NCBI GenBank assembly: GCA_965237675.1
Contig: OZ250150.1
Location: forward strand, 4,768,001 to 4,832,000
Direction of reading: 5' to 3'
DNA from: Candidatus Latescibacterota bacterium
GTDB lineage: Bacteria; Latescibacterota; UBA2968; GCA-2709665
DNA: 64,000 bases
Positions within the stretch are counted from its first letter, which is position 1, and each line of letters begins with the position of its first letter. The position numbers were made by a program, and so were the translations under genes. This document shows positions 3,084 to 15,493 of the stretch, piece after piece. The notes below the pieces were generated by a model. That model saw only the letters and a program-made list of their open reading frames with translations, was not told the DNA's origin and made no database searches.

Positions 3084-3683
3084 TTACAGCAGATAAAGAA
3101 TCGGGAACAAGAAGATCCAGACCAGATCCACAAAGTGCCAGTAGAGACCGGCGCACTCGATCCGGTTGGCAAACTGCTCCGGCGCCGTATGCCATAGCTT
3201 GCTGCCCGGGAACAGCAGGTAGAGATTCACAACGATTCCACCGATCACGTGCAGTCCATGAAGGCCGGTCATTGTAAAATACGTGGCGTAAAACATGTTG
3301 GTGGACGGATAGATGCCAAGATGAAATTTGTGGGTATATTCGAAGTATTTCACAACCAGGAACACAAACGCCAGCAACACCGTCAGGCCAAGGTATAACT
3401 TGAACGTGCCAAAATTGTCCATTTTCAAGGATGCCCAGGACATCACCATGGTCACACTCGAGGCGATCAGCACAAACGTATTCAGCGTGGCCAGCGGCAC
3501 ATTCAACAACTCCCAACCATGCGGCCACGTCGGCGCGCCCACCCTGAGCAGGACCAGCGTTGAAAACAACGCGCCAAACAGCATCACCTCGGACGCCAGG
3601 AACAACCAGATCCCGAACTTCCCGTTATACACCCCCGTTATCGGATGCGGCTCCACCGTGTGGGGAATCTCTTCAACGGACAC
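3084..3683 (-). CDS. ctaE: Cytochrome c oxidase subunit III
   Basis: WLFLASEVMLF, TGLHGLHV, GLYWHFVDLVW; GTG start with AGGAG RBS. Confidence 0.95.
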   Translation of the reverse strand: MSVEEIPHTVEPHPITGVYNGKFGIWLFLASEVMLFGALFSTLVLLRVGAPTWPHGWELLNVPLATLNTFVLIASSVTMVMSWASLKMDNFGTFKLYLGLTVLLAFVFLVVKYFEYTHKFHLGIYPSTNMFYATYFTMTGLHGLHVIGGIVVNLYLLFPGSKLWHTAPEQFANRIECAGLYWHFVDLVWIFLFPILYLL

Positions 3684-3737
3684 CGTTAATCTCCTTTGCA
3701 TTTTCGCGGACTGACGCCTCGCTCGCAGCCGACGGGG

Positions 3738-5528
3738 TTAATCGTCGTCGGCGGGCGTGGGCGCTGGCTCGGGTTGGGCCACCTGCCCGTTTTCAGCCAC
3801 GTATTGTGGCGTAAAATCACTCGAGGCCCCAGGCACGCTATATTCGTACGGCCCGCGGTAGACCCGCGGCGTGGCCAGGAAATTCCCGTGCGGAGGCGGC
3901 GTGGGCGTGGCCCACTCCAAGGTGGTGGCCTGCCACGGATTGTCCGACTCGACCTTCCGGCCCTTCCTTATACTCATAAAGAAATTGACGATGAAGAATA
4001 TCTGCGCCAGCCCAAGCAGCCATGCAGACCAGGAGCTCATTGTCGTCAGGCCCTGCACCTGCGCCCCATAGGCGTACTGTGTCTGGTCGTAAAGTCTCCT
4101 GGAAACCCCGGCCATCCCCACGAACAACATCGGCATGAAGACGCCGTTTATAAAGATCAGGCTGGACCAGAAATGCAGTTTGCCCAATACCTCGTTCAAC
4201 ATACGGCCGGTCACCTTGGGAAACCAATGATAGACCCCGGCGAACAGCGCGAATATCGTGCCCGGCGCCACCACATAGTGGAAATGGCCGATCACGTAGT
4301 ACGTGTCGTGCAGATGCAGATCCGAGGCCGTGAGGCCCAGCGGCAGACCGGTCAACCCCCCAATGGCGAACATGGGAATGAATGCCAGGCAGAACAGCAT
4401 GGGCACCGAAAACCGGATGGACGCGCCGTGCAGGCTCAACGCGTACGCCGTCAGGATAATCACCGACGGAATGGAGATGATCATGGTCGTGGCCTGAAAG
4501 AAGGTACTGATTGTGGTTCCCATCCCCGTCATGAACATATGATGCGCCCAGACGGTAAACGACAGGAACCCCAGAGAGATAATCGAGTAGACGAGCGTGC
4601 GATACCCCCACAGTGGCCGACGCGTATTGTTGGCCACAATCTCCCCGACGATGCCCATCGCCGGCAGAATCAGTACGTAGACTTCCGGATGCGCAAGAAA
4701 CCAGAACAGGTGCTGCCACAAGAGCGGACTGCCACCGCCGCTCACCTCCAGCGCCTGTCCTGTTACCACCAGGCCGCTCGGCATGAAGAAGCTGGTACCC
4801 GCGATCCGGTCCATGAGTTGCAGCACGCCGGCGGCCTCGAGCGGCGGGAACGCCAGCAGCAGCAGAAACGCCGTCACGAACTGCGCCCAGACAAAAAACG
4901 GCAGCCGGAAAAACGACATCCCCTCGGCCCGCATCTGCACCGTCGTCACGATAAAATTCACCGAACCCAGAAGAGACGACGTGATCAGGGCCACCATGCC
5001 CCACAGCCACCAGGTCTGCCCCGTCGGGGCGATATTCGCCAGCGGAGGATAGGACGTCCAGCCGGACTGAGCCGCTCCCTCGGGAACGAAAAAGCTGGCC
5101 AGCATAATGACACCGCCCACGAAAAACACCCAGTAGCTCGCCATATTGAGCTTGGGAAACGCCATATCCGGCGCGCCGATCTGAAGCGGCAGCACGTAGT
5201 TCCCAAATCCACCCACAGCCAGTGGAACCACGCCCAGGAACACCATGATCGTTCCATGCATCGCCCCCAGCTGGTTGTAGAACTCCGGCACCATCACGCC
5301 TTCCGGCATGTTCACCTCGCTGAACAACTTGCCGATCCAGGGTATCGGTTGTCCGGGATAGGCCAACTGCCACCGCATCATCATCATCAGGCAGAAGCCG
5401 AAAAACAGGAAAAGCAGGGCGGAGACAGCGTATTGAATCCCGATGACCTTGTGATCGACGGAAAAAATGTACTTGCGCCAGTACGTCAACTCATGGTGTT
5501 CGTGATCACCGTGCGCTTGCTCAGCCAT
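3738..5528 (-). CDS. ctaD: Cytochrome c oxidase subunit I (A-family heme-copper oxidase)
   Basis: DHKVIG, HGTIM, GWTSYPPL, HPEVY, WAHHM, HDTY..HFHY, RR motifs. Confidence 0.97.
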   Translation of the reverse strand: MAEQAHGDHEHHELTYWRKYIFSVDHKVIGIQYAVSALLFLFFGFCLMMMMRWQLAYPGQPIPWIGKLFSEVNMPEGVMVPEFYNQLGAMHGTIMVFLGVVPLAVGGFGNYVLPLQIGAPDMAFPKLNMASYWVFFVGGVIMLASFFVPEGAAQSGWTSYPPLANIAPTGQTWWLWGMVALITSSLLGSVNFIVTTVQMRAEGMSFFRLPFFVWAQFVTAFLLLLAFPPLEAAGVLQLMDRIAGTSFFMPSGLVVTGQALEVSGGGSPLLWQHLFWFLAHPEVYVLILPAMGIVGEIVANNTRRPLWGYRTLVYSIISLGFLSFTVWAHHMFMTGMGTTISTFFQATTMIISIPSVIILTAYALSLHGASIRFSVPMLFCLAFIPMFAIGGLTGLPLGLTASDLHLHDTYYVIGHFHYVVAPGTIFALFAGVYHWFPKVTGRMLNEVLGKLHFWSSLIFINGVFMPMLFVGMAGVSRRLYDQTQYAYGAQVQGLTTMSSWSAWLLGLAQIFFIVNFFMSIRKGRKVESDNPWQATTLEWATPTPPPHGNFLATPRVYRGPYEYSVPGASSDFTPQYVAENGQVAQPEPAPTPADDD

Positions 5529-5540
5529 GGAAAAGGCTCC

Positions 5541-6311
5541 TTAAAAGGAAAACTCGTCTTCTTCATCCGCGGCACCTGACTGTTCGTCGAACCAGGCCTG
5601 GAACGCCGCTTCCGACTCGACCGTCAGCTGTCCGCGCATGCGATAGTGCCCCAGACCGCACAATTGAGCACACGCGATGTCAAATGTACCGGCCCGGGTT
5701 GCCTCGAACCAGATCTTGATGTCCTGTCCTGGAATTGCATCCTGAGTCATCCGCATCACGGGGATCTTGAAGCTGTGAATGACATCCTTCGACGAGAGGT
5801 GCGCAATGACGGGCTTGTCCTTCACAATATGCAGATTGTTGATGGCATTGAAATCGTCGTTGCCGTTCGGATCGTCGGGATCCAGCCCAAGCAGATTATC
5901 GGCGCTCACGAATTGCGGCGCCGTCCGTCCGAATATTCCGTCTTTCCCCGAATAGTGGATGTTCCATGCAAACTGCTCGGGCACCACCCGCACCACCAGC
6001 GCGTCGGATTCGTCGGGAAACGCATGTTTGAAGTCCGCCCAGAGCGGCATGGAGAGTCCGACAAGCAGCACGGCCTCGACGACGATCACGCCGTACTCCA
6101 CGTATTTGGCCAGTTTTCCCTTCACGGGATCGTAAGTCGCCGAAGGGTTTGCCCTTCTTCGGTACCGGAGAAGGCAGTAGACGAAAAAGACCCCCCAACC
6201 CAGAAACAGCGCCAACATAAAGACATGCAGCCAATTGATCAGCCAATCCACGGTTGCGCCGTGTGTTGAGATATCGATTGGCAGCCAGTAACCGTACACC
6301 TTTTCTTGCAT
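5541..6311 (-). CDS. ctaC: Cytochrome c oxidase subunit II (CuA, no fused cytochrome c)
   Basis: QFAW..HY, DVIHSF, DAIPG, CAQLCGLGHYRM CuA motif. Confidence 0.95.
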   Translation of the reverse strand: MQEKVYGYWLPIDISTHGATVDWLINWLHVFMLALFLGWGVFFVYCLLRYRRRANPSATYDPVKGKLAKYVEYGVIVVEAVLLVGLSMPLWADFKHAFPDESDALVVRVVPEQFAWNIHYSGKDGIFGRTAPQFVSADNLLGLDPDDPNGNDDFNAINNLHIVKDKPVIAHLSSKDVIHSFKIPVMRMTQDAIPGQDIKIWFEATRAGTFDIACAQLCGLGHYRMRGQLTVESEAAFQAWFDEQSGAADEEDEFSF

Positions 6312-7247: not shown

Positions 7248-10200
7248 CTATCGCCGGGTCAACCGGACATCCTGGTGCAAGCCGTAGACGATGTAGTCGG
7301 TGAGCGCCCGAATGACCACGTCGGTTGGCAACTCGAGCAGGCCATCCTCCGGCTTGACCCCCTCCGGCAGCTTCAGATAGGCGGCCATTTCCACCGGAAG
7401 ATAGGTCATTTCGTCACCGAAGAACGTGGGCATCTTGGTGCCCGGCTGAATCTTCTGCGGATCCCACAACCAGTCTCTGATCCACGCAGGTTTCAGCCGC
7501 TCCCGGGCCAATTTCAGGTCGGGCGCCCAGCTTGCCGGATCGCCCTTGGGCTTGATATCGCCCTGCTGGTGGCAGGTGAAGCAGTTGTAAATGTCCTCGC
7601 TGAACAGCTTCTTCGCGCCACTCATCTCCTTTGAAATCAAACGCTTATCCACAAACGTCGCGTAGGGAAACTGCTCCTTGTCCAGACGGGAAAAATAGGT
7701 GACCAGATCGTTGGCCTGCTGGTCTTCGAAGCCGAATGTGGGCATCCGCACTTCAAGCCACGGACGGATGGGCTCCACGTTTCTAAGGAAAGTGAAGAAC
7801 CAGTCCGGCTGAACTTTTCTGCCCTCGCCATTCAGGACCGGCGGCACGAAACCCGCCGCGTCGGAGGCCGAAACATCCTCGGCCTCGTAGGCCTTCACGA
7901 GCGGATCCCGGATCGCCCCGCCCAGATTCTCGACGACGTGGCACCCTTGACAATTCCTCTCGTAGACCAGCCAGCGGCCCTTCTCGATATCGACTTCCTC
8001 GGGGGCCAGGCGTTTGACCGCGTTGGTGCCCACCTGGGTCCTGTTCATGCTCAGTAGCGCCGTCGTCACCGCGTGCGCATCCTGATCGCTCAGATCGAAC
8101 TGGGGCATCCGCAACTTGTCGTCGAACAGCCTCACCTTGCCCTTATCGAAGACGCGGGGTTGTTTCAGCTTCTTGTAGAACCAGTCATGACGCGTATGCG
8201 GAATGGCGTCGGGATCGGTGTTGTGGAAACCCGTTTCCCTGGCCAATAGACCGAAATCCAGCTTGTCCACGTCCTTGCTGCCTTCCTCGGTCAGTTCGGT
8301 GCCGATGGGCTGGGTATCCTCGAATCCGGGTATCAGGTGGCATCCGAAGCAGCCCTGCCGGGAGATAATCTTCTCGCCGAGCCAGATGTCCCTTTCATGA
8401 CTCGACATCTGAGCCAGTTGGGCCTTCGCGGTCTTCACGGGCAGCCTGCTTTGCAGATAATTCAGCACCAGATCGTCACGCACCTGCGGGTCCACCGCCC
8501 CCAACTGTCGGGCTTCAAACGCCGTATTCCGAAGGGTGAGCAGATAGGCCGTGATATCGGCCGCCTCCCGGTCGGTCAGCCGCAAATTCGGCATCCGGGT
8601 ATCCGGGAAATAGCCCGAGGGATCCTTCAGCCAGGCGAACAGCCAGCCAGCCGAGACCTTGCTGCCCACCTCGTTCAGGTCCGGTCCGAAATTCCGCAGC
8701 CCGAATCCCTGGCTCAACCGATCGTCCGCGCCTACCACGTGGCATGCCTTGCAACCCACCATTTCGACGAGACGCTCGCCCCGGCCGGCGTCGCCCGGCA
8801 CCGGAGGCGGGGGGTATACGGGTCGCTCGGACTTCTCGAACAGATACGTCACAATAGCGTTGACCGCGGCCGTATTGCGCTCGATATCCTCCCGTCCGCT
8901 CACGTTGGACAGATCGAAAATCTTGGGCATCTTGGTGGTCGGACGGAAGCCCTTGGGGTCGCGCACCCACTTCAGGGCCCACTCGCGATCCAGCTTGCCG
9001 GCCGCCTTCCGCAGATCCGGACCGACCTTGCGCAGATCCTGCAGCGTATGCCTGGAGATTTTGTGGCAGCCGTGGCAACCCAGCGTGCGCACGAGATGGA
9101 TACCTCGATTCAGGTTGTCCGCCTGCGGTACGTCCACGACGCCTGTGTGGCATTGCGCGCACGTCGATTCCACGTAGCGGCTGGGTAGCATGGGGTGGTC
9201 CCAGTATTTCATCTTCTTCCAGCCGTACAGCTTTTTCCACCTGGCCGCCTCGGCGTCGTCGCTGGGGGTATGGGCCGTATTCTTGAACGTCACCCCCCGG
9301 TCTCGACCCAGATGACAGGTCGTACACCCCGACTCATCGATCGGATGAGGCGAACCGCTGCTCAGGAAAAGGTCCAGCCTCGGATGGGTGGAAAACGCCC
9401 TGGTGCGTCCGAGCCGGACATCTTCGTCCGAGTAGACCGTTTCCATATAAGCCCGGAGTGCCTCATCCTCGAACCAGCCGGTTTCCGGATGGAGTTCGTA
9501 ACCGGGACGATTGATGTTCAGATGGCACGTGGTACATCGATCCACCCGGGGCACCCGGGTGAAGTTGAGTTCGTTTCTGAGTTCAGCCAGCACGACCTGC
9601 CTGACCTTTATGGACGGATCGATAAAGTCAACCATGGGCAGGTTTCGGAACACATTGGGGAAGCTCGGTACAAGTCCGGTCAGCTTCCGCCGCAGGTTCT
9701 CTTCGTCCCTGCGCAACGCGCGCCGCCTGGACTCAAGCGCCTGCCTCTGTCCCGCCACGGCGTCAATGATCTTCTGCTGCGCCGCCTGTTTTTCCTCCAC
9801 CGCCTCCCTGGCCAGCCGGAGCTCGTAGATCCGGATCTCCATGGCGTCCATATCGGCCTTTTTCTTAGCCGCCGTTTCGCCATGTCCGGCCTTCGCCGCG
9901 GCTTCATACTCAAACTTCACCACGTCGTACTGCGCTTTTTCGAATTTGAGCCTCTGATCGACGCCGTACCATTCCGCCTGCGTGAGCCGTTTCAGCTCGG
10001 CCTCCGCCGCGTCGTATCGCTGCTGATGCCCCTTAATCGCTGCCTCAATTCCCGTGAGTTCGTCTTCAATCGCGTTCAGGGCGTCCTGGTCAATGTTCTC
10101 CTGGGCCGATCTGATTTCCGCTTCCGTCTTGTAGGCCTCAAGAGCCATCGCTTCTTTTTGAAAGCCCTTCCACTCCCGGTCGTAGTCGTCCCAGACCATC

Positions 10201-10301
10201 CAGAGTACGGCAAGAACCAGCGCGACGCTGGACAGGGCGAAAATCATGTTCAATTTATCTACATTGTAGACAAAGTCTATGAAGCGCTTCTGTTCATTCA
10301 T
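7248..10301 (-). CDS. Membrane-anchored multiheme (8x CxxCH) cytochrome c of a Rieske/cyt b complex
   Basis: N-terminal TM, long coiled-coil-like segment, then CTTCH x2, CAQCH, CHGCH, CKACH, CFGCH, CQGCH, CFTCH; several distal MP motifs. Confidence 0.92.
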   Translation of the reverse strand: MNEQKRFIDFVYNVDKLNMIFALSSVALVLAVLWMVWDDYDREWKGFQKEAMALEAYKTEAEIRSAQENIDQDALNAIEDELTGIEAAIKGHQQRYDAAEAELKRLTQAEWYGVDQRLKFEKAQYDVVKFEYEAAAKAGHGETAAKKKADMDAMEIRIYELRLAREAVEEKQAAQQKIIDAVAGQRQALESRRRALRRDEENLRRKLTGLVPSFPNVFRNLPMVDFIDPSIKVRQVVLAELRNELNFTRVPRVDRCTTCHLNINRPGYELHPETGWFEDEALRAYMETVYSDEDVRLGRTRAFSTHPRLDLFLSSGSPHPIDESGCTTCHLGRDRGVTFKNTAHTPSDDAEAARWKKLYGWKKMKYWDHPMLPSRYVESTCAQCHTGVVDVPQADNLNRGIHLVRTLGCHGCHKISRHTLQDLRKVGPDLRKAAGKLDREWALKWVRDPKGFRPTTKMPKIFDLSNVSGREDIERNTAAVNAIVTYLFEKSERPVYPPPPVPGDAGRGERLVEMVGCKACHVVGADDRLSQGFGLRNFGPDLNEVGSKVSAGWLFAWLKDPSGYFPDTRMPNLRLTDREAADITAYLLTLRNTAFEARQLGAVDPQVRDDLVLNYLQSRLPVKTAKAQLAQMSSHERDIWLGEKIISRQGCFGCHLIPGFEDTQPIGTELTEEGSKDVDKLDFGLLARETGFHNTDPDAIPHTRHDWFYKKLKQPRVFDKGKVRLFDDKLRMPQFDLSDQDAHAVTTALLSMNRTQVGTNAVKRLAPEEVDIEKGRWLVYERNCQGCHVVENLGGAIRDPLVKAYEAEDVSASDAAGFVPPVLNGEGRKVQPDWFFTFLRNVEPIRPWLEVRMPTFGFEDQQANDLVTYFSRLDKEQFPYATFVDKRLISKEMSGAKKLFSEDIYNCFTCHQQGDIKPKGDPASWAPDLKLARERLKPAWIRDWLWDPQKIQPGTKMPTFFGDEMTYLPVEMAAYLKLPEGVKPEDGLLELPTDVVIRALTDYIVYGLHQDVRLTRR

Positions 10302-10415
10302 CGAACGGCTCCAGAGAGGCGGCATTTGCCAAAAGCACAGGGCGAGCCGCGTCTTTCAATCCCTTCAGAAATTCCACAGCATGCTGCAGCGGCGCCGGAC
10401 AACAAAAAAGAACCC

Positions 10416-11492
10416 TCAGATATTGAAGAAATATTCCGGAATGGCAACGATGTATTTCAGGTTGAACAGCCAGCGAAGCAACATCTTGATGGGGAGGGCG
10501 ACCATGCAGAGGAAGAAGAGGATCATCACGCTATAGCGGGCGAATCCCATGGTCTTGTAGAACTCCTTGAACGCCGTTTGCGCCAGTACGGGCGGCGGCA
10601 CCAGAAAATACAGGATAACGATGAGGAAACCCCATATCTCGCGCGTCAACCAGAAGGATGGTAAACCCGTACCCAGCCATTGGACATAGATATATTCCGA
10701 AAGATTGACGTTGACCAGCGCTTCCAGTTTGTGTACGTCCCAGAATTCGTACGGCCCGAAAAAGTTCCAGTTCGGGCCACGCAAAAACGTACCGATCATG
10801 ATCAACACCACCCACAACACCACAAAACCGAACAGAAACACCGTAATGGCGAACCGGCGTTCCTTGAAGGTATAGTAACCCAAACCCTTCGGATTCCGAT
10901 CGATAAACGGAATGGCCATGAGACCCACAATGACGAGGGTGGGCATAACGACCCCGGCGATCCATGGATCGTAATACACCAGCATTTCCTGAAGGCCCAG
11001 GAAATACCAGGGCGCCTTGGACGGATTGGGGGTTGATGCGGGGTTGGCCGGCTCTTCGATGGGGGCTTTTATCAGCACGGACCAGAGAATCAGAAAGACT
11101 GTTGCCAGGGTCAGGCAAATCAACTCCGTGTAGACCAGATGGGGCCAGGTGAGGACCTTCTCTTTGAATTCGGCTTTCTCAACCGGCCCTTCTCCGCGTT
11201 CGATACGCTCGTCGTTGTCGTACCCCTGTTTCAGGCTGTACCAGACAAAAAAACCGACCAGGAACAACAACATGACAATTGGGATATTGTCGCCCTTGGT
11301 CACGATGATGCGGAAATTCTCATCCTGAAAACTCACAACGAAGAATACGATCGAGGCGATCAGGGCGAGGACGCCGAACCGGACCGTCCAGACCCAGCGG
11401 GTCCGCAAAGCCAGGAAAAAGAGAATGGCAAACAACGGCATGAAATATTCAGGCGTCAGAAGCCAGTTGATGAAGCCCTTCAGAACTTCCAT
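10416..11492 (-). CDS. Cytochrome b/b6 subunit IV-like protein with extra TM helices
   Basis: WPHLV..E and PA.P..TPNPSKAPWYFLGLQE (PEWY-equivalent), IPFIDR. Confidence 0.88.
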   Translation of the reverse strand: MEVLKGFINWLLTPEYFMPLFAILFFLALRTRWVWTVRFGVLALIASIVFFVVSFQDENFRIIVTKGDNIPIVMLLFLVGFFVWYSLKQGYDNDERIERGEGPVEKAEFKEKVLTWPHLVYTELICLTLATVFLILWSVLIKAPIEEPANPASTPNPSKAPWYFLGLQEMLVYYDPWIAGVVMPTLVIVGLMAIPFIDRNPKGLGYYTFKERRFAITVFLFGFVVLWVVLIMIGTFLRGPNWNFFGPYEFWDVHKLEALVNVNLSEYIYVQWLGTGLPSFWLTREIWGFLIVILYFLVPPPVLAQTAFKEFYKTMGFARYSVMILFFLCMVALPIKMLLRWLFNLKYIVAIPEYFFNI

Positions 11493-11537: not shown

Positions 11538-12323
11538 CTACATCGGTCCGGAGATCCCGCCGTCCTTTCGGACCCGCCAGAAGTGAACGGACATTAATAC
11601 AGCCGCCACAAACGGGATGAACAGACAATGCAGTACATAAAACCTCAGCAGCGCGCCCTCCCCGACAAAACGGCCACCCAACAGCGCAAATCGGGCGTCG
11701 TCGCCGGCGTGGACCAGGTTGATGTCGCCGAGCATCAGGAACGCCGCTCCCGGCCCCTCGTGCCCGAGGAAAGGCGTTGCCCGCGCCATATTCGATCCGA
11801 CCGTAATAGCCCAGATGGCAAGCTGATCCCAGGGTAACAGATACCCGGTAAAGCTCAGCAATAGCGTCAATAGAAGCAGAATGACACCAATCGCCCAGTT
11901 GAACTCGCGCGGCGGTTTATAGGAACCGGTCATAAACACGCGCAACATGTGCAGCCAGACCGTAATAATCATCGCGTGGGCGCCCCACCGGTGAATCTCC
12001 CGCATGATGCCCAGCGGCACCTGCTCACCCAGGTCGATAATGTCGGTGTAGGCGTATTCGAGTGTGGGCCGGTAGTAAAACATGAGCAGAATGCCGGTGA
12101 TGGTCTCAACCAGAAAAATAAAAAAGGTGAGCCCACCCATACACCACGTGTAGCGCACCCGGATACCCGATTTGGGGGTTCGCACGGGATGCAGATGCAG
12201 GAATACATTGGTCAGTACCACCTGCGCCCGACCGCGTTCGTCACTCGGCACGTCGTGTCTGAAGATCGACTTCCAGATCTGAGAGCGCTTGGTCTTGTCA
12301 AGCAGGCCCGAAATCTTCGGCAT
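11538..12323 (-). CDS. Cytochrome b6-type N-terminal subunit
   Basis: [62 protein letters not shown]. Confidence 0.95.
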
Positions 12324-12410: not shown

Positions 12411-13361
12411 TTAGATCCGCAAAAAGGATTCCGGGTTGTCCCAGTGACCCTTCTCGTACAGAAACTTTCGGGTCTTGTCGACCAGCACCTGACCGTCCTC
12501 GGCCAGCACGATGCGGGCCCGTTCCAGCGGTCGCGGCGCCGGGCCCTCGAAGTTGATGCCGGTCATATAAAAGCCGCTGCCGTGGCAGGGACACTTGAAC
12601 TTCTGTTCATTGCCCAGCCAGTTCGGCGTGCAACCCAGATGGGTACATACCGAAATGAGCGCGAACATATCCTGCGTGGTCTTGATGACCCAGACGCTGA
12701 ATTTATCCTTCCAGCGTTCGTCCACGCCCAGATCGTAATCTTCCGGAAACCCGATTTTGAAAGTCTGCGGCGGCTCGAACAGGACATTCGGAAACAGAAA
12801 ACGCGCGAACCCCAGGAGCCCCGCCGCGGACGCGGCCGCGAACGCCGCCCAAGCCAGGGTCAGCCAGGTAAAAAACCCCCGCCGGGTGGTCATGCCGCCT
12901 TCAGCCACCGACTGCGTTCTCTCCGGCCCAGGGCGGATTGCGGGCGGGGCCGGCGAGGTCTGGACGATCACGCGCTCCGCTTCCGGCGCATCCTTTTTTT
13001 GCGTTAACGCGCGAGCGGCAGCGGCCCTGTCTGCGGTGGAAGCGGCCTTCTTCGCCGGCGCACCTGCCGGGGCCGCTCCGCCGCCCCCGCGGGCCTTGCG
13101 CATCAGTTCGGCCTTGGCTTTTGCACGGGCAACGCGATCCTGGATCTCGTTCAGCGACGAAAGATCCACTTCGGCGCCGCCGGAATCGCCCCCCGGTTCC
13201 TCCGGGGCCTTCGCGGAAGCTCCCTCCGCCGGTGTTGCCGGGGAGGCTTCGCCTCCGGCGGCCGCTCTGGCCTTGCGCATCGCCTCCGCTTTGGCCCTGG
13301 CCCTGGCCACTCGATCCGGAATTTCGTCGAATTCCGAAAGATCGATATTATCTTCCGACAT
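12411..13361 (-). CDS. Rieske [2Fe-2S] subunit with long N-terminal repeat extension
   Basis: Tat-like TTRRGFF plus TM anchor, CTHLGC and CPCHGS boxes, GPAPRPL. Confidence 0.95.
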   Translation of the reverse strand: MSEDNIDLSEFDEIPDRVARARAKAEAMRKARAAAGGEASPATPAEGASAKAPEEPGGDSGGAEVDLSSLNEIQDRVARAKAKAELMRKARGGGGAAPAGAPAKKAASTADRAAAARALTQKKDAPEAERVIVQTSPAPPAIRPGPERTQSVAEGGMTTRRGFFTWLTLAWAAFAAASAAGLLGFARFLFPNVLFEPPQTFKIGFPEDYDLGVDERWKDKFSVWVIKTTQDMFALISVCTHLGCTPNWLGNEQKFKCPCHGSGFYMTGINFEGPAPRPLERARIVLAEDGQVLVDKTRKFLYEKGHWDNPESFLRI

Positions 13362-13484
13362 GGAACACCCCAGAAACCACTTGAGCGGATTTCGAGCCGA
13401 AACTCGTTAGAACGAAATAATATATGATATAAGCTAAAGAAATACCGCAAATTGAATCACTTACAGCCCCCGAGATACCGGGCC

Positions 13485-13513
13485 AATATATCGAAACCGC
13501 CCCGGATTGTCAA
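13485..13513 (-). promoter_or_regulatory. Sigma-70-type promoter for the respiratory operon
   Basis: TTGACA-17 bp-TATATT on minus strand upstream of the Rieske gene. Confidence 0.65.
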
Positions 13514-13619
13514 GCGGGATTTTCCGTAGATTCGCACCTTGCGGGGAGAGCGAACGAGGGTTCCGATGCGCGCCCGAACGGGCCGGATCCCTCGCTGCAA
13601 TTCCGTCGATTCAAGTCGC

Positions 13620-14528
13620 TCATTTCTCCCCCCATCCGTTCAGAACTTCAATGGCCGCCTGCCGGACCCGCAGGTCCGGATCCTGTTGGCGCAGTTCCTG
13701 CATCGCGGGAGCCAGGGACCTGGCATCGAGAATGCCCACGGCCCTGATCGCTTCCACCAGAATATTGCGCCGGCCCTCACCGCTTATCCGGTCGAATTTG
13801 CCCAGGTACCCCGGGCTGAGCATCTCGCCCAGAACCTCGAGGCCCGCGTTATTGCCGGCCGCCGCCAACTGCAGGGCGGCGTTCCAGCGAACGTCGGGCT
13901 CCCGGTCGTACAGGGCCAGTTCGAGTGCGGGCTGCACGCGCGGGTCTTCAAGAGTTCCCAGGGCGTATACCGCGGCCTTACGCAGGCCGGCATCGTCGTT
14001 GGACGCGATCCTTACAAGATGCGGCACGGCGCTCGGATCCCCCTGCGCCCTGAGCGAGAACATCGCGTTGATCCGGGTCTCGTCGTCGGGATCATCCAAC
14101 GCGGAAATCAATACGCTGACCAGCGTGGGATCCTGCACCCTTCCCATTGCCGCGGCCAGAAAACGCCGCACGCGGGGGTCGTCCGAACGGGAATCCTCGA
14201 ACACCCGGATCATTTCTCCGACAAACTTCCGGCCGATCCGTCCCTCGCGCTGCTCCTCGTCGAGTACCGTGGCCAGTTCGTACGCCGCCTGCCACCGGCT
14301 GTTAATGCCGCCGACGCGAATGGCGTTGAGATAGTCCTCCGCCGTTTTTCGCTCTGCGGTCAATAGCCCCAGTCCCAGGTATATCGCAAGCCCTACGAGG
14401 ATAATGGCCACCGGGAAGATGACGAACTGTGAGACCAGCCTCGCCCTGGAGACGTCCACGTCCGAAACCGGAGCGGCGGCATCCTCGGCGATTTTTCTGA
14501 GTTCCTCTTCGGGAGTCGGATGGTCCAT
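13620..14528 (-). CDS. HEAT-repeat (PBS lyase-like) protein with N-terminal TM helix
   Basis: Repeated L.D.D..VR..AA.ALG units; one hydrophobic segment near the N-terminus. Confidence 0.85.
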   Translation of the reverse strand: MDHPTPEEELRKIAEDAAAPVSDVDVSRARLVSQFVIFPVAIILVGLAIYLGLGLLTAERKTAEDYLNAIRVGGINSRWQAAYELATVLDEEQREGRIGRKFVGEMIRVFEDSRSDDPRVRRFLAAAMGRVQDPTLVSVLISALDDPDDETRINAMFSLRAQGDPSAVPHLVRIASNDDAGLRKAAVYALGTLEDPRVQPALELALYDREPDVRWNAALQLAAAGNNAGLEVLGEMLSPGYLGKFDRISGEGRRNILVEAIRAVGILDARSLAPAMQELRQQDPDLRVRQAAIEVLNGWGEK

Positions 14529-14596
14529 TCGGCAACCTCTGTCTTGAACACCGGTAATCGTGAACCTTCAAGTCGACGGGCGAAAACACGCGGACC

Positions 14597-14700
14597 AATA
14601 TAAACAGAGGCGGTATACGCTGTCAAGATTTTGGTCCGCGACAAAGTTTGCACGAACCCGCCCCTTCATCCTTGACAACCCATGAGAAAGACCTTATTTT
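14597..14700. promoter_or_regulatory. Divergent sigma-70-type promoters (HEAT gene / ferredoxin gene)
   Basis: Minus: TTGACA(14621-26)-18-TATATT; plus: TTGACA(14672-77)-17-TATTTT. Confidence 0.5.
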
Positions 14701-14758
14701 ATTCTCGGATTGCACTTTCCCCATCCACTGATTGCGATCGACAGGAGATCTCTTTCCC

Positions 14759-15493
14759 GTGAACGTCGACCTTTCTCAGTTTGACGGCATCTCCGACCGG
14801 GTGGCGCGGGCCAAGGCCAAGGCCGAGGCCATGCGGAAAGCCAAGCAGGGCGGCGGCGACGCTGCGGTGGCCATGGCGGAATCAGCCGCTCCGGAACCCG
14901 ACGCCGCACACGTTTCCGCAGACACCGAAAAGGAGACCTCGGGCCTCACCATTCTCGAATTCCGGCCTGGCATGCATTTCAAACTGGACGGGCGGGCGGG
15001 ACGGACCGTGAGCATCCGTTACGACTTGGTCAGTTTCGTCTACGACGACGACCCCGACCAGCTTGTTACCGCCGACCGATTTCGCCTCAGTCACGCCCAC
15101 GCCGAAGGCGCACTGGAATTCGCTCCAAAATCCGAGGTCTACCGTCCCGAGCGGGTCGCGAAAAAAGAACGCGTCGACTTCCATGAACACCTCTGGTTGG
15201 AAACCCGCTCCGGCATGGTTGCCAAGAAGAAACGGCCCCGGCATATTGCCATTATCAACCCGGACTACTGCACCGGCTGCAACGCCTGCATCGAAGTCTG
15301 TCCAACAGATTGTATCGAAGAAGTGGACGTCGCGGATGCGGGGCTGGACGGCATCGGCACTTTTTGTGAAGTTCGGCTTGAAGACTGCATCGGATGCATC
15401 CAATGTGTGCATATCTGTCCGTGGGAAGCCATCGAAATGGTGGACACCCAGCGGGTTGAAGAGGCATACGGCATTCCCGTGGGGTCATTATAG
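14759..15493 (+). CDS. 2x[4Fe-4S] ferredoxin-domain protein with N-terminal extension
   Basis: GTG start after AGGAG; CTGCNACIEVCP and CIGCIQCVHICP motifs. Confidence 0.9.
   Translation: MNVDLSQFDGISDRVARAKAKAEAMRKAKQGGGDAAVAMAESAAPEPDAAHVSADTEKETSGLTILEFRPGMHFKLDGRAGRTVSIRYDLVSFVYDDDPDQLVTADRFRLSHAHAEGALEFAPKSEVYRPERVAKKERVDFHEHLWLETRSGMVAKKKRPRHIAIINPDYCTGCNACIEVCPTDCIEEVDVADAGLDGIGTFCEVRLEDCIGCIQCVHICPWEAIEMVDTQRVEEAYGIPVGSL

Follow-up and report, generated by a model that had tools for sequence, protein, structure and literature searches.

Why should a subunit of a cytochrome b6-type complex and a nearby ferredoxin gene bear one and the same short peptide? The question is raised by a window of 64,000 nucleotides from a Candidatus Latescibacterota genome (assembly GCA_965237675.1, contig OZ250150.1, positions 4,768,001 to 4,832,000; unless another sequence is named, positions below count from the first letter of the window). 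In this window, a peptide of 27 residues occurs twice in the N-terminal extension of a Rieske iron-sulfur protein and once at the start of a divergently transcribed gene. An earlier note, made from the sequence alone, had taken the peptide for a homotypic docking tag that couples the ferredoxin to the complex. We found that it is under purifying selection at the protein level and that, judging from profile comparisons, it is a mobile module carried across proteins and phyla. Most of the carriers identified are cytoplasmic-side subunits of quinone-linked complexes (the Rieske protein and subunit IV of b6-type complexes, NuoI) or the adjoining SH3/ferredoxin partner.

Conservation of the 27-residue peptide

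The three copies lie where the earlier note had placed them, the third copy proper spanning 14765-14845 in a gene that starts at 14759. As that note had also held, they are kept as protein with differing codons: any two of them share 20 or 21 of the 27 residues (74 to 78%) and 52 to 58 of the 81 nucleotides (64 to 72%), with 10 to 13 synonymous codon differences per pair. Among 15 genomes of the same genus, copy 1 showed 7.0 synonymous versus 0.9 nonsynonymous codon differences per pair and copy 2 showed 8.1 versus 0.9, so the Rieske extension is both translated and selected. For copy 3, the column conservation over 46 homologues was 0.83 in the peptide versus 0.35 in the linker that follows it.

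A hidden Markov model (HMM) of the three copies was run against the 121,606 six-frame open reading frames (ORFs) of the 5.6-Mb source genome and, as the tag proposal had anticipated, matched only the Rieske protein and the divergent gene. These matches (domain E values of about 1e-17) are the very copies from which the model was built; the same scan gave no fourth copy, the next match having an E value of 4.5, and broader profiles run over the genome returned the same three copies and no further ones. A mobile DNA-level repeat inserted in the genes was considered and rejected, since the protein is conserved above the DNA and the copies are not scattered.

The peptide has a low-complexity composition of Ala, Lys, and Arg and sits on a flexible Ala/Pro/Gly tether. 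Its copy number varies from 1 to 4, some relatives having a single Rieske copy. The charge is bipolar, the first half being acidic (-3.7) and the second basic (+5.5), and the net charge of the second half ranged between +5.4 and +6.9 in all four carrier groups compared. One Asp and an R..R.K.K pattern are common to the Latescibacterota, Marinimicrobia, and actinobacterial groups described below; this invariance is partly by construction, as R..R.K.K also served as the selection expression, and alignments show the pattern too. Copy 3 was modelled by AlphaFold as a short helix (residues 6-8) followed by a long one (residues 14-30). Three of the basic residues (Arg/Arg/Lys) fall on one face of the long helix (40 to 100 degrees), and there is no heptad of large hydrophobic residues (Leu/Ile) in the peptide. 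The best explanation of these features is a small helix-turn-helix interaction module at the end of a flexible tether.

Occurrence within Latescibacterota

The peptide was present in 30 of the 168 Latescibacterota genomes, with 82 copies in total, 2 or 3 per genome and in every case at this locus, in a span of about 3 kb. A broader profile found the same 82 copies at E values of 5e-13 or better, the next match being at 0.012. In all 30 genomes, the Rieske protein had the peptide, as did the divergent gene, and nothing else carried it, which bears out the expected co-occurrence on orthologues of the two partners. The 30 genomes are those with a cytochrome b6 at at least 85% identity; seven further genomes have cytochrome b6 homologues at 47 to 77% and no peptide. 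The peptide-bearing genomes are kin, and we therefore count them as one conserved locus and not as 30 independent events.

The partner of the Rieske protein

The divergent gene starts with a GTG codon at 14759, preceded by an AGGAG ribosome-binding site. The earlier description of its product as a ferredoxin holds for the domain with two [4Fe-4S] clusters, but the protein is not a plain ferredoxin: an SH3/Tudor-like barrel (residues 65-121) lies between the peptide and the Fe-S domain. The barrel has no Pfam or NCBIfam match, and its fold matches are generic, spread over Tudor, KOW, and CarD folds (best VIA Z 6.6, root mean square deviation [rmsd] 3.6, 66 residues aligned). No transmembrane (TM)-like segment was found in the 244-residue fusion. 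Its AlphaFold model has a disordered linker and a predicted local distance difference test (pLDDT) score below 50 for the ferredoxin domain, and is thus uninformative on contacts within the chain. The charge of the ferredoxin core was -10 to -17 in 45 homologues. Among 47 ferredoxin homologues retrieved by protein search, 44 matched the strict pattern of the peptide, 1 had a variant, and 2 were without it.

Among the 168 genomes, the SH3-like domain occurred in exactly the 30 that have the peptide, and the ferredoxin in these 30 plus three weaker matches. Of the 30 genomes, 28 have barrel and ferredoxin in one frame. The other two, G077 and G079, have a split gene: its first part encodes a membrane protein that bears the barrel and two copies of the peptide, and its second part a free ferredoxin that has none. 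Loci L031 and L081 are split in the same way, and a record named Ca. Handelsmanbacteria belongs to one cluster of these membrane proteins. The free ferredoxins of this split lineage (n = 3) have a charge of -14 to -15. A tag on the ferredoxin is therefore not supported as worded, the peptide of G077 and G079 being on the SH3-like membrane protein. Related ferredoxins without the peptide were also found inside the second b6 operon of G079 (L043) and, in G049 and G050, immediately following 2-oxoacid oxidoreductase genes (L083:6325-9430 and L084:4013-7130). The peptide thus goes together with the barrel and the tail of the Rieske protein, and ferredoxin and b6 genes are linked also in its absence. 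The ferredoxin's copy probably stems from a fusion with an SH3-like membrane partner, which would have lost its TM anchor in the process. In the genomes of L083 and L084, the Rieske and cytochrome b genes are at loci separate from the related ferredoxin.

Carriers outside the phylum

We then searched 1.84 billion representative sequences with a profile made from the Latescibacterota copies only. Of the 30 matches, 21 belonged to the local types and 5 were NuoI-like proteins or fragments; 2 membrane proteins with a START/SRPBCC domain, 1 unplaced fragment, and 1 probable chance repeat made up the rest. The earlier expectation that matches would be restricted to redox proteins was thus not upheld, the START-domain proteins having no redox center. 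The NuoI-like carriers have two or three C-terminal repeats of about 65 residues, each beginning with the peptide, and 5 of 20 of their homologues bear Marinimicrobia or Fidelibacterota names. The link to these repeats scores 25 to 35 bits versus at most 7 for reversed sequences, and 98% versus 1% in HH comparison, which makes a strong case for homology at the sequence level. The Marinimicrobia peptide is modelled as part of a four-helix domain of its own (pLDDT 84-91) with the invariant basic residues kept, and fold searches with the repeat model returned only generic helical bundles (best Z 6.0, rmsd 3.4, 67 residues aligned). The core of the Marinimicrobia NuoI is nearer to the NuoI of the 11-subunit complex I of the source genome (43%) than to that genome's other NuoI (29 to 32%).

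A scan of metagenomes yielded another 30 loci, 3 of which were set aside. The rest were 21 of the local type, 5 with actinobacterial-type NuoI tails, and 1 (L071) with the peptide at the N terminus of subunit IV of a b6 complex. A profile that included such distant copies matched 942 of 8,000 candidates at an E value of 10 or better. The best 120 of the 942 were 89 Fe-S/NuoI proteins, 20 Rieske proteins, 6 of the barrel-TM type, and 5 NuoI-tail fragments; where the actinobacterial group is concerned, this search is circular, and a breakdown of the best 120 may include too few of the non-redox carriers. P0079, L074, L078, and L079 were dropped as probable chance matches. None of 22 pattern matches on viral contigs was confirmed, plasmids gave no confirmed match, atlas searches gave no usable one, and no holder was listed among RNAs.

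The actinobacterial NuoI cores form one family (88 of 88 at 72 to 100% identity to P0140), and their copies of the peptide have a five-residue insertion in the first helix. At both loci with upstream context (L070 and L076), nuoC runs straight into nuoH, without nuoD-G. The actinobacterial loci gave no match to a HEAT or an SH3-like domain.

What the peptide may bind

The reading that we rank first, and hold tentatively, is that the peptide is an arm recruiting ferredoxin to the electron-entry face of its complex. It is ranked so on account of the basic invariant face, the acidic ferredoxin, and three known systems compared below: ferredoxin docking on NDH-1, the partners of anammox complexes, and the 11-subunit complex I with no designated donor. 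The invariant Arg/Arg/Lys face of the long helix would bind an acidic low-potential carrier, here the 2x[4Fe-4S] domain, and repeated copies would raise the local concentration of the carrier at the entry site. This site would be heme ci/Qi in the b6 complex and the NuoI clusters in a complex I without the NADH module. In this organism, electrons could then pass between the menaquinone pool and ferredoxin reduced by 2-oxoacid:ferredoxin oxidoreductase, with the b6 complex, upstream of the heme-copper oxidase, as the place of exchange. That the modelled Marinimicrobia peptide lies within a four-helix domain and yet keeps its basic residues is suggestive of an acidic ligand external to it. Some form of tether, be it an arm for ferredoxin or a pairing of the peptide with itself, seems on balance somewhat more likely than not. 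The wider proposition, that a donor-recruiting module absent from the catalogues marks the ferredoxin entry face of both b6-type complexes and complex I without the NADH module across phyla of nonphototrophs, is in our judgment doubtful.

Several observations weigh against the recruiting arm. The fused ferredoxin keeps a strongly conserved copy of its own (44 of 47 homologues), which self-pairing explains more simply. Homology of the actinobacterial repeats is of moderate strength as judged from their scores, the Latescibacterota-only HMM giving a median of 15 bits versus 7 for reversed sequences and HH comparison 96% versus 75%, and the absence of nuoEFG in these carriers refers to operons, not whole genomes. 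The NuoI of the 11-subunit operon in the source genome itself has no tail. Two carriers (P0078 and P0080) are membrane-anchored START/SRPBCC proteins with three or four C-terminal repeats related to the peptide and no redox center; START domains include quinone chaperones such as Coq10. Finally, the Rieske protein of G048 (L039:8792-10015, minus strand) has two copies of a different repeat of about 50 residues in the peptide's place. This repeat has a weak Rho_N match (E value of 0.003, below the cut-off) and may resemble the DNA-binding helix pair of the Lsr2 type.

An amended form of the original docking proposal appears somewhat unlikely to us. In it, copies of the peptide pair antiparallel, acidic half on basic half, and so link the Rieske tail to the SH3-ferredoxin fusion, or to an SH3-TM protein that would itself keep hold of a free ferredoxin. 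Pairing fits all the Latescibacterota arrangements: it accords with the presence of the peptide on both genes and nowhere else in all 30 genomes, with its bipolar charge, with its retention in a soluble fusion that lacks a TM segment, and with an identity slightly higher within than between genomes (0.748 versus 0.736, permutation P of 0.02 from 25 related, non-independent pairs). However, the invariant face is basic and a Leu/Ile heptad is lacking, the Marinimicrobia peptide is modelled inside a domain of its own, and the actinobacterial loci, which span only 2 to 8 kb each, showed no second carrier. Moreover, copies of the peptide group by host protein (0.80 to 0.81) over partner (0.74).

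The invariant basic residues on a helix of small residues could instead recognize a common ligand without redox function, such as an anionic lipid, a nucleic acid, or a scaffold protein, so that the hosts would be co-localized and electron transfer not wired. We regard this as possible but not probable. The START-domain carriers without a redox center, the substitution of a Rho_N-like repeat in the G048 Rieske protein, and the fact that the identified carriers are membrane or membrane-complex proteins all speak for it. A general localization tag would nevertheless be expected on more proteins than those of one respiratory locus, to which the copies are confined in the 30 genomes, and the peptide has no sequence or fold match to nucleic-acid-binding domains.

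Less probable still is an assembly or regulatory handle read by the neighboring HEAT-repeat protein, the SH3-like domain, or Tat/Fe-S maturation factors. A HEAT-TM gene does lie between the two peptide-bearing genes in the loci examined, and the SH3-like domain has exactly the distribution of the peptide in the phylum, but a HEAT homologue is also present at the G048 locus, which lacks the peptide, and neither domain was matched in the actinobacterial loci. A functionless duplication or DNA-level repeat, for which the low-complexity composition and the variable copy number might plead, is scarcely credible, being largely refuted by the ratio of about 8:1 between synonymous and nonsynonymous differences and further opposed by the higher conservation of the peptide than of the adjoining linker and by the lack of scattered copies.

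The peptide bears on two questions. The first is what feeds electrons to complex I-like enzymes without NuoEFG, for which the available text of PMC3144371 reports no designated partner; the second is the exchange of electrons between heme ci of b6-type complexes and ferredoxin, suggested in PMC5600118 in the part available. One peptide of 27 residues, which can be synthesized and used directly as bait, appears at both places. If the wider proposition is true, the peptide would be a bait for the donor of complex I with 11 subunits and would point to a ferredoxin:quinone route via heme ci outside photosynthesis. Whatever the ligand, the module is uncatalogued and present on hundreds of database proteins, including records named Nitriliruptor, Egicoccus, and Frankiaceae.

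The locus and the genome

The features of the locus are collected in Table 1. The twin Arg of the Rieske protein is at residues 160-161 (12870-12890 region). The topology of twin-arginine translocation (Tat) places the sequence ahead of a Rieske anchor in the cytoplasm, and the extension that bears the peptide would accordingly be cytoplasmic. With a short cytochrome b, a separate subunit IV, and a Tat-type Rieske protein, the operon is of the b6 type. The canonical PEWY Qo motif is not present in subunit IV of the window. The CxGG sequence at residues 61-64 of the short cytochrome b is the motif of heme ci, or cn (PMC5600118, in the part available), so the sequence signature of the heme ci that the earlier note ascribed to b6-type complexes is present. 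The same minus-strand operon also encodes a carboxypeptidase-regulatory-like protein, and the HEAT-repeat gene is syntenic in the loci with the peptide that were examined. Four sigma70-like sites were found versus 0.8 +/- 0.9 in shuffled sequence; three of the predicted promoters, those of the Rieske operon, the HEAT gene, and the ferredoxin gene, are nearly identical and near consensus.

Table 1. Positions of the features discussed, numbered from the start of the window
Feature	Position	Strand	Remarks
Heme-copper oxidase subunits II, I, and III	3084..6311	-	Downstream, same orientation; subunit III read from the ORF list only
Cytochrome c	7248..10325	-	8 CxxCH motifs
Subunit IV	10416..11492	-	PF00032; APWY variant of PEWY Qo motif
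Short (b6-type) cytochrome b	11538..12323	-	CxGG at 12132-12146
Rieske [2Fe-2S] subunit, 316 residues	12411..13361	-	PF00355; N-terminal extension of about 157 residues ahead of twin-arginine anchor
Extra conserved Ala/Arg-rich segment	13002..13043	-	Rieske residues 107-120; recurs in same-family and same-order orthologues
Peptide copy 2	13089..13169	-	Rieske residues 65-91
Peptide copy 1	13266..13346	-	Rieske residues 6-32
Near-consensus sigma70-like site	13485..13513	-	Before Rieske operon; 11/12 matches
HEAT-repeat protein	13620..14528	-	PF13646; one TM segment; between the two peptide-bearing genes
Back-to-back sigma70-like sites	14597..14700		HEAT gene (-, 14626-14597) and ferredoxin gene (+, 14672-14700)
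Soluble fusion, 244 residues	14759..15493	+	Peptide, linker, SH3-like domain, 2x[4Fe-4S] ferredoxin
Peptide copy 3	14765..14845	+	Residues 3-29 of the fusion
SH3/Tudor/KOW-like barrel	14951..15121	+	Residues 65-121; pLDDT 79-91 (AlphaFold)
Basic KKKRPR lead-in and acidic 2x[4Fe-4S] domain	15224..15490	+	Net charge -13

No photosynthetic reaction-center gene was found in the source genome, which is 99.9% complete, in agreement with the nonphototrophic setting assumed earlier. The genome has futalosine menaquinone genes, 2-oxoacid:ferredoxin oxidoreductase genes, and, beside suf genes, a complete 11-subunit complex I-like operon (nuoA-D and H-N; C1:3780964-3791981). A second nuo operon carries nuoEFG. 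In the ORF listing, this nuoEFG operon runs from nuoH into nuoJ without a nuoI, and an orphan nuoI lies about 2.2 Mb away (C1:3200294-3200788 and C1:1028982-1040000). Elsewhere in the phylum, a second Rieske/cytochrome b locus of G037 (L049:2903-6849) is arranged as in anammox bacteria, having a large NAD(P)/Fe-S oxidoreductase-like gene immediately upstream, and a gene for a four-cluster polyferredoxin lies downstream of a b6 operon without the peptide in G071 (L042:2845-3396).

Relation to known families and systems

The peptide is apparently a real and undescribed module on known kinds of complexes. The claim that it belongs to no described family was confirmed as far as the databases go: Pfam had no family for any of the three copies and NCBIfam none for two of them, the distant copies gave only sub-threshold or unrelated matches in both, and no sequence relatives were found in PDB (best E values of 3.7, 0.3, and 0.43). 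Literature searches, which covered mainly titles and abstracts, with subscription journals mostly absent and the letters of the motif not searched, returned no description of the peptide, nor of a NuoI repeat common with subunits of b6 complexes.

PCP_red (PF08369) is likewise a small helical domain appended to redox proteins and often repeated, with a superficial likeness in its "IP..R..K." Homology to it was unsupported, with 0.7 to 4.6% in hhalign against 12 PCP_red domains and no match in the source genome; PDB 2L09, which we take to be a member, appeared at an E value of 0.86 in the PDB search. In 5 of 132 genomes of the class, there are gene clusters (L095-L106) with several PCP_red domains, borne by proteins of radical SAM-like and universal-stress-like kinds. 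RnfB and RnfC resemble the peptide in having Ala/Lys/Arg-rich basic helices on cytoplasmic Fe-S subunits. No Rnf protein was among the 30 profile matches or the best 120 of 942, the long proteobacterial tails not being compared directly, and no RnfC exceeded the cut-off in the source genome or any of the 30 genomes.

The cytochrome b complexes of anammox Kuenenia and of subfamily G, as far as described in the available parts of PMC5600118 and PMC12954380, are alike in the short cytochrome b, the subunit IV, the multiheme cytochrome c, and the CxGG heme site, and also in having an Fe-S partner encoded beside the complex and placed on the cytoplasmic side. The present partner differs from theirs: it is a small fusion of an SH3-like domain with a ferredoxin, has no NAD(P)/FAD domain, and is divergently encoded in a genome with a heme-copper oxidase. 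No common peptide is mentioned in those parts of the two accounts.

In the NDH-1 of cyanobacteria, ferredoxin docks at basic residues belonging to NdhI, NdhH, NdhV, and NdhO beside the SH3-like NdhS, according to the accessible portion of PMC7021789. The likeness thus lies in a complex I without the NADH module, in basic patches near NdhI that bind ferredoxin, and in an SH3-like subunit at that place. The partner protein has an SH3-like barrel, as NdhS/PsaE-type subunits do; neither NdhS nor PsaE ranked in the top 50 of this barrel's fold matches. The NDH-1 elements differ in being compact subunits and not repeated, tethered arms, and NdhS does not touch ferredoxin in the structure as reported there.

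As regards complex I-like enzymes of 11 subunits, the consulted text of PMC3144371 states that no designated electron donor has been found and suggests an extension of the Bacillus NuoC as a partner contact. The likeness in this case is that the distant carriers of the peptide are NuoI subunits of operons without nuoD-G.

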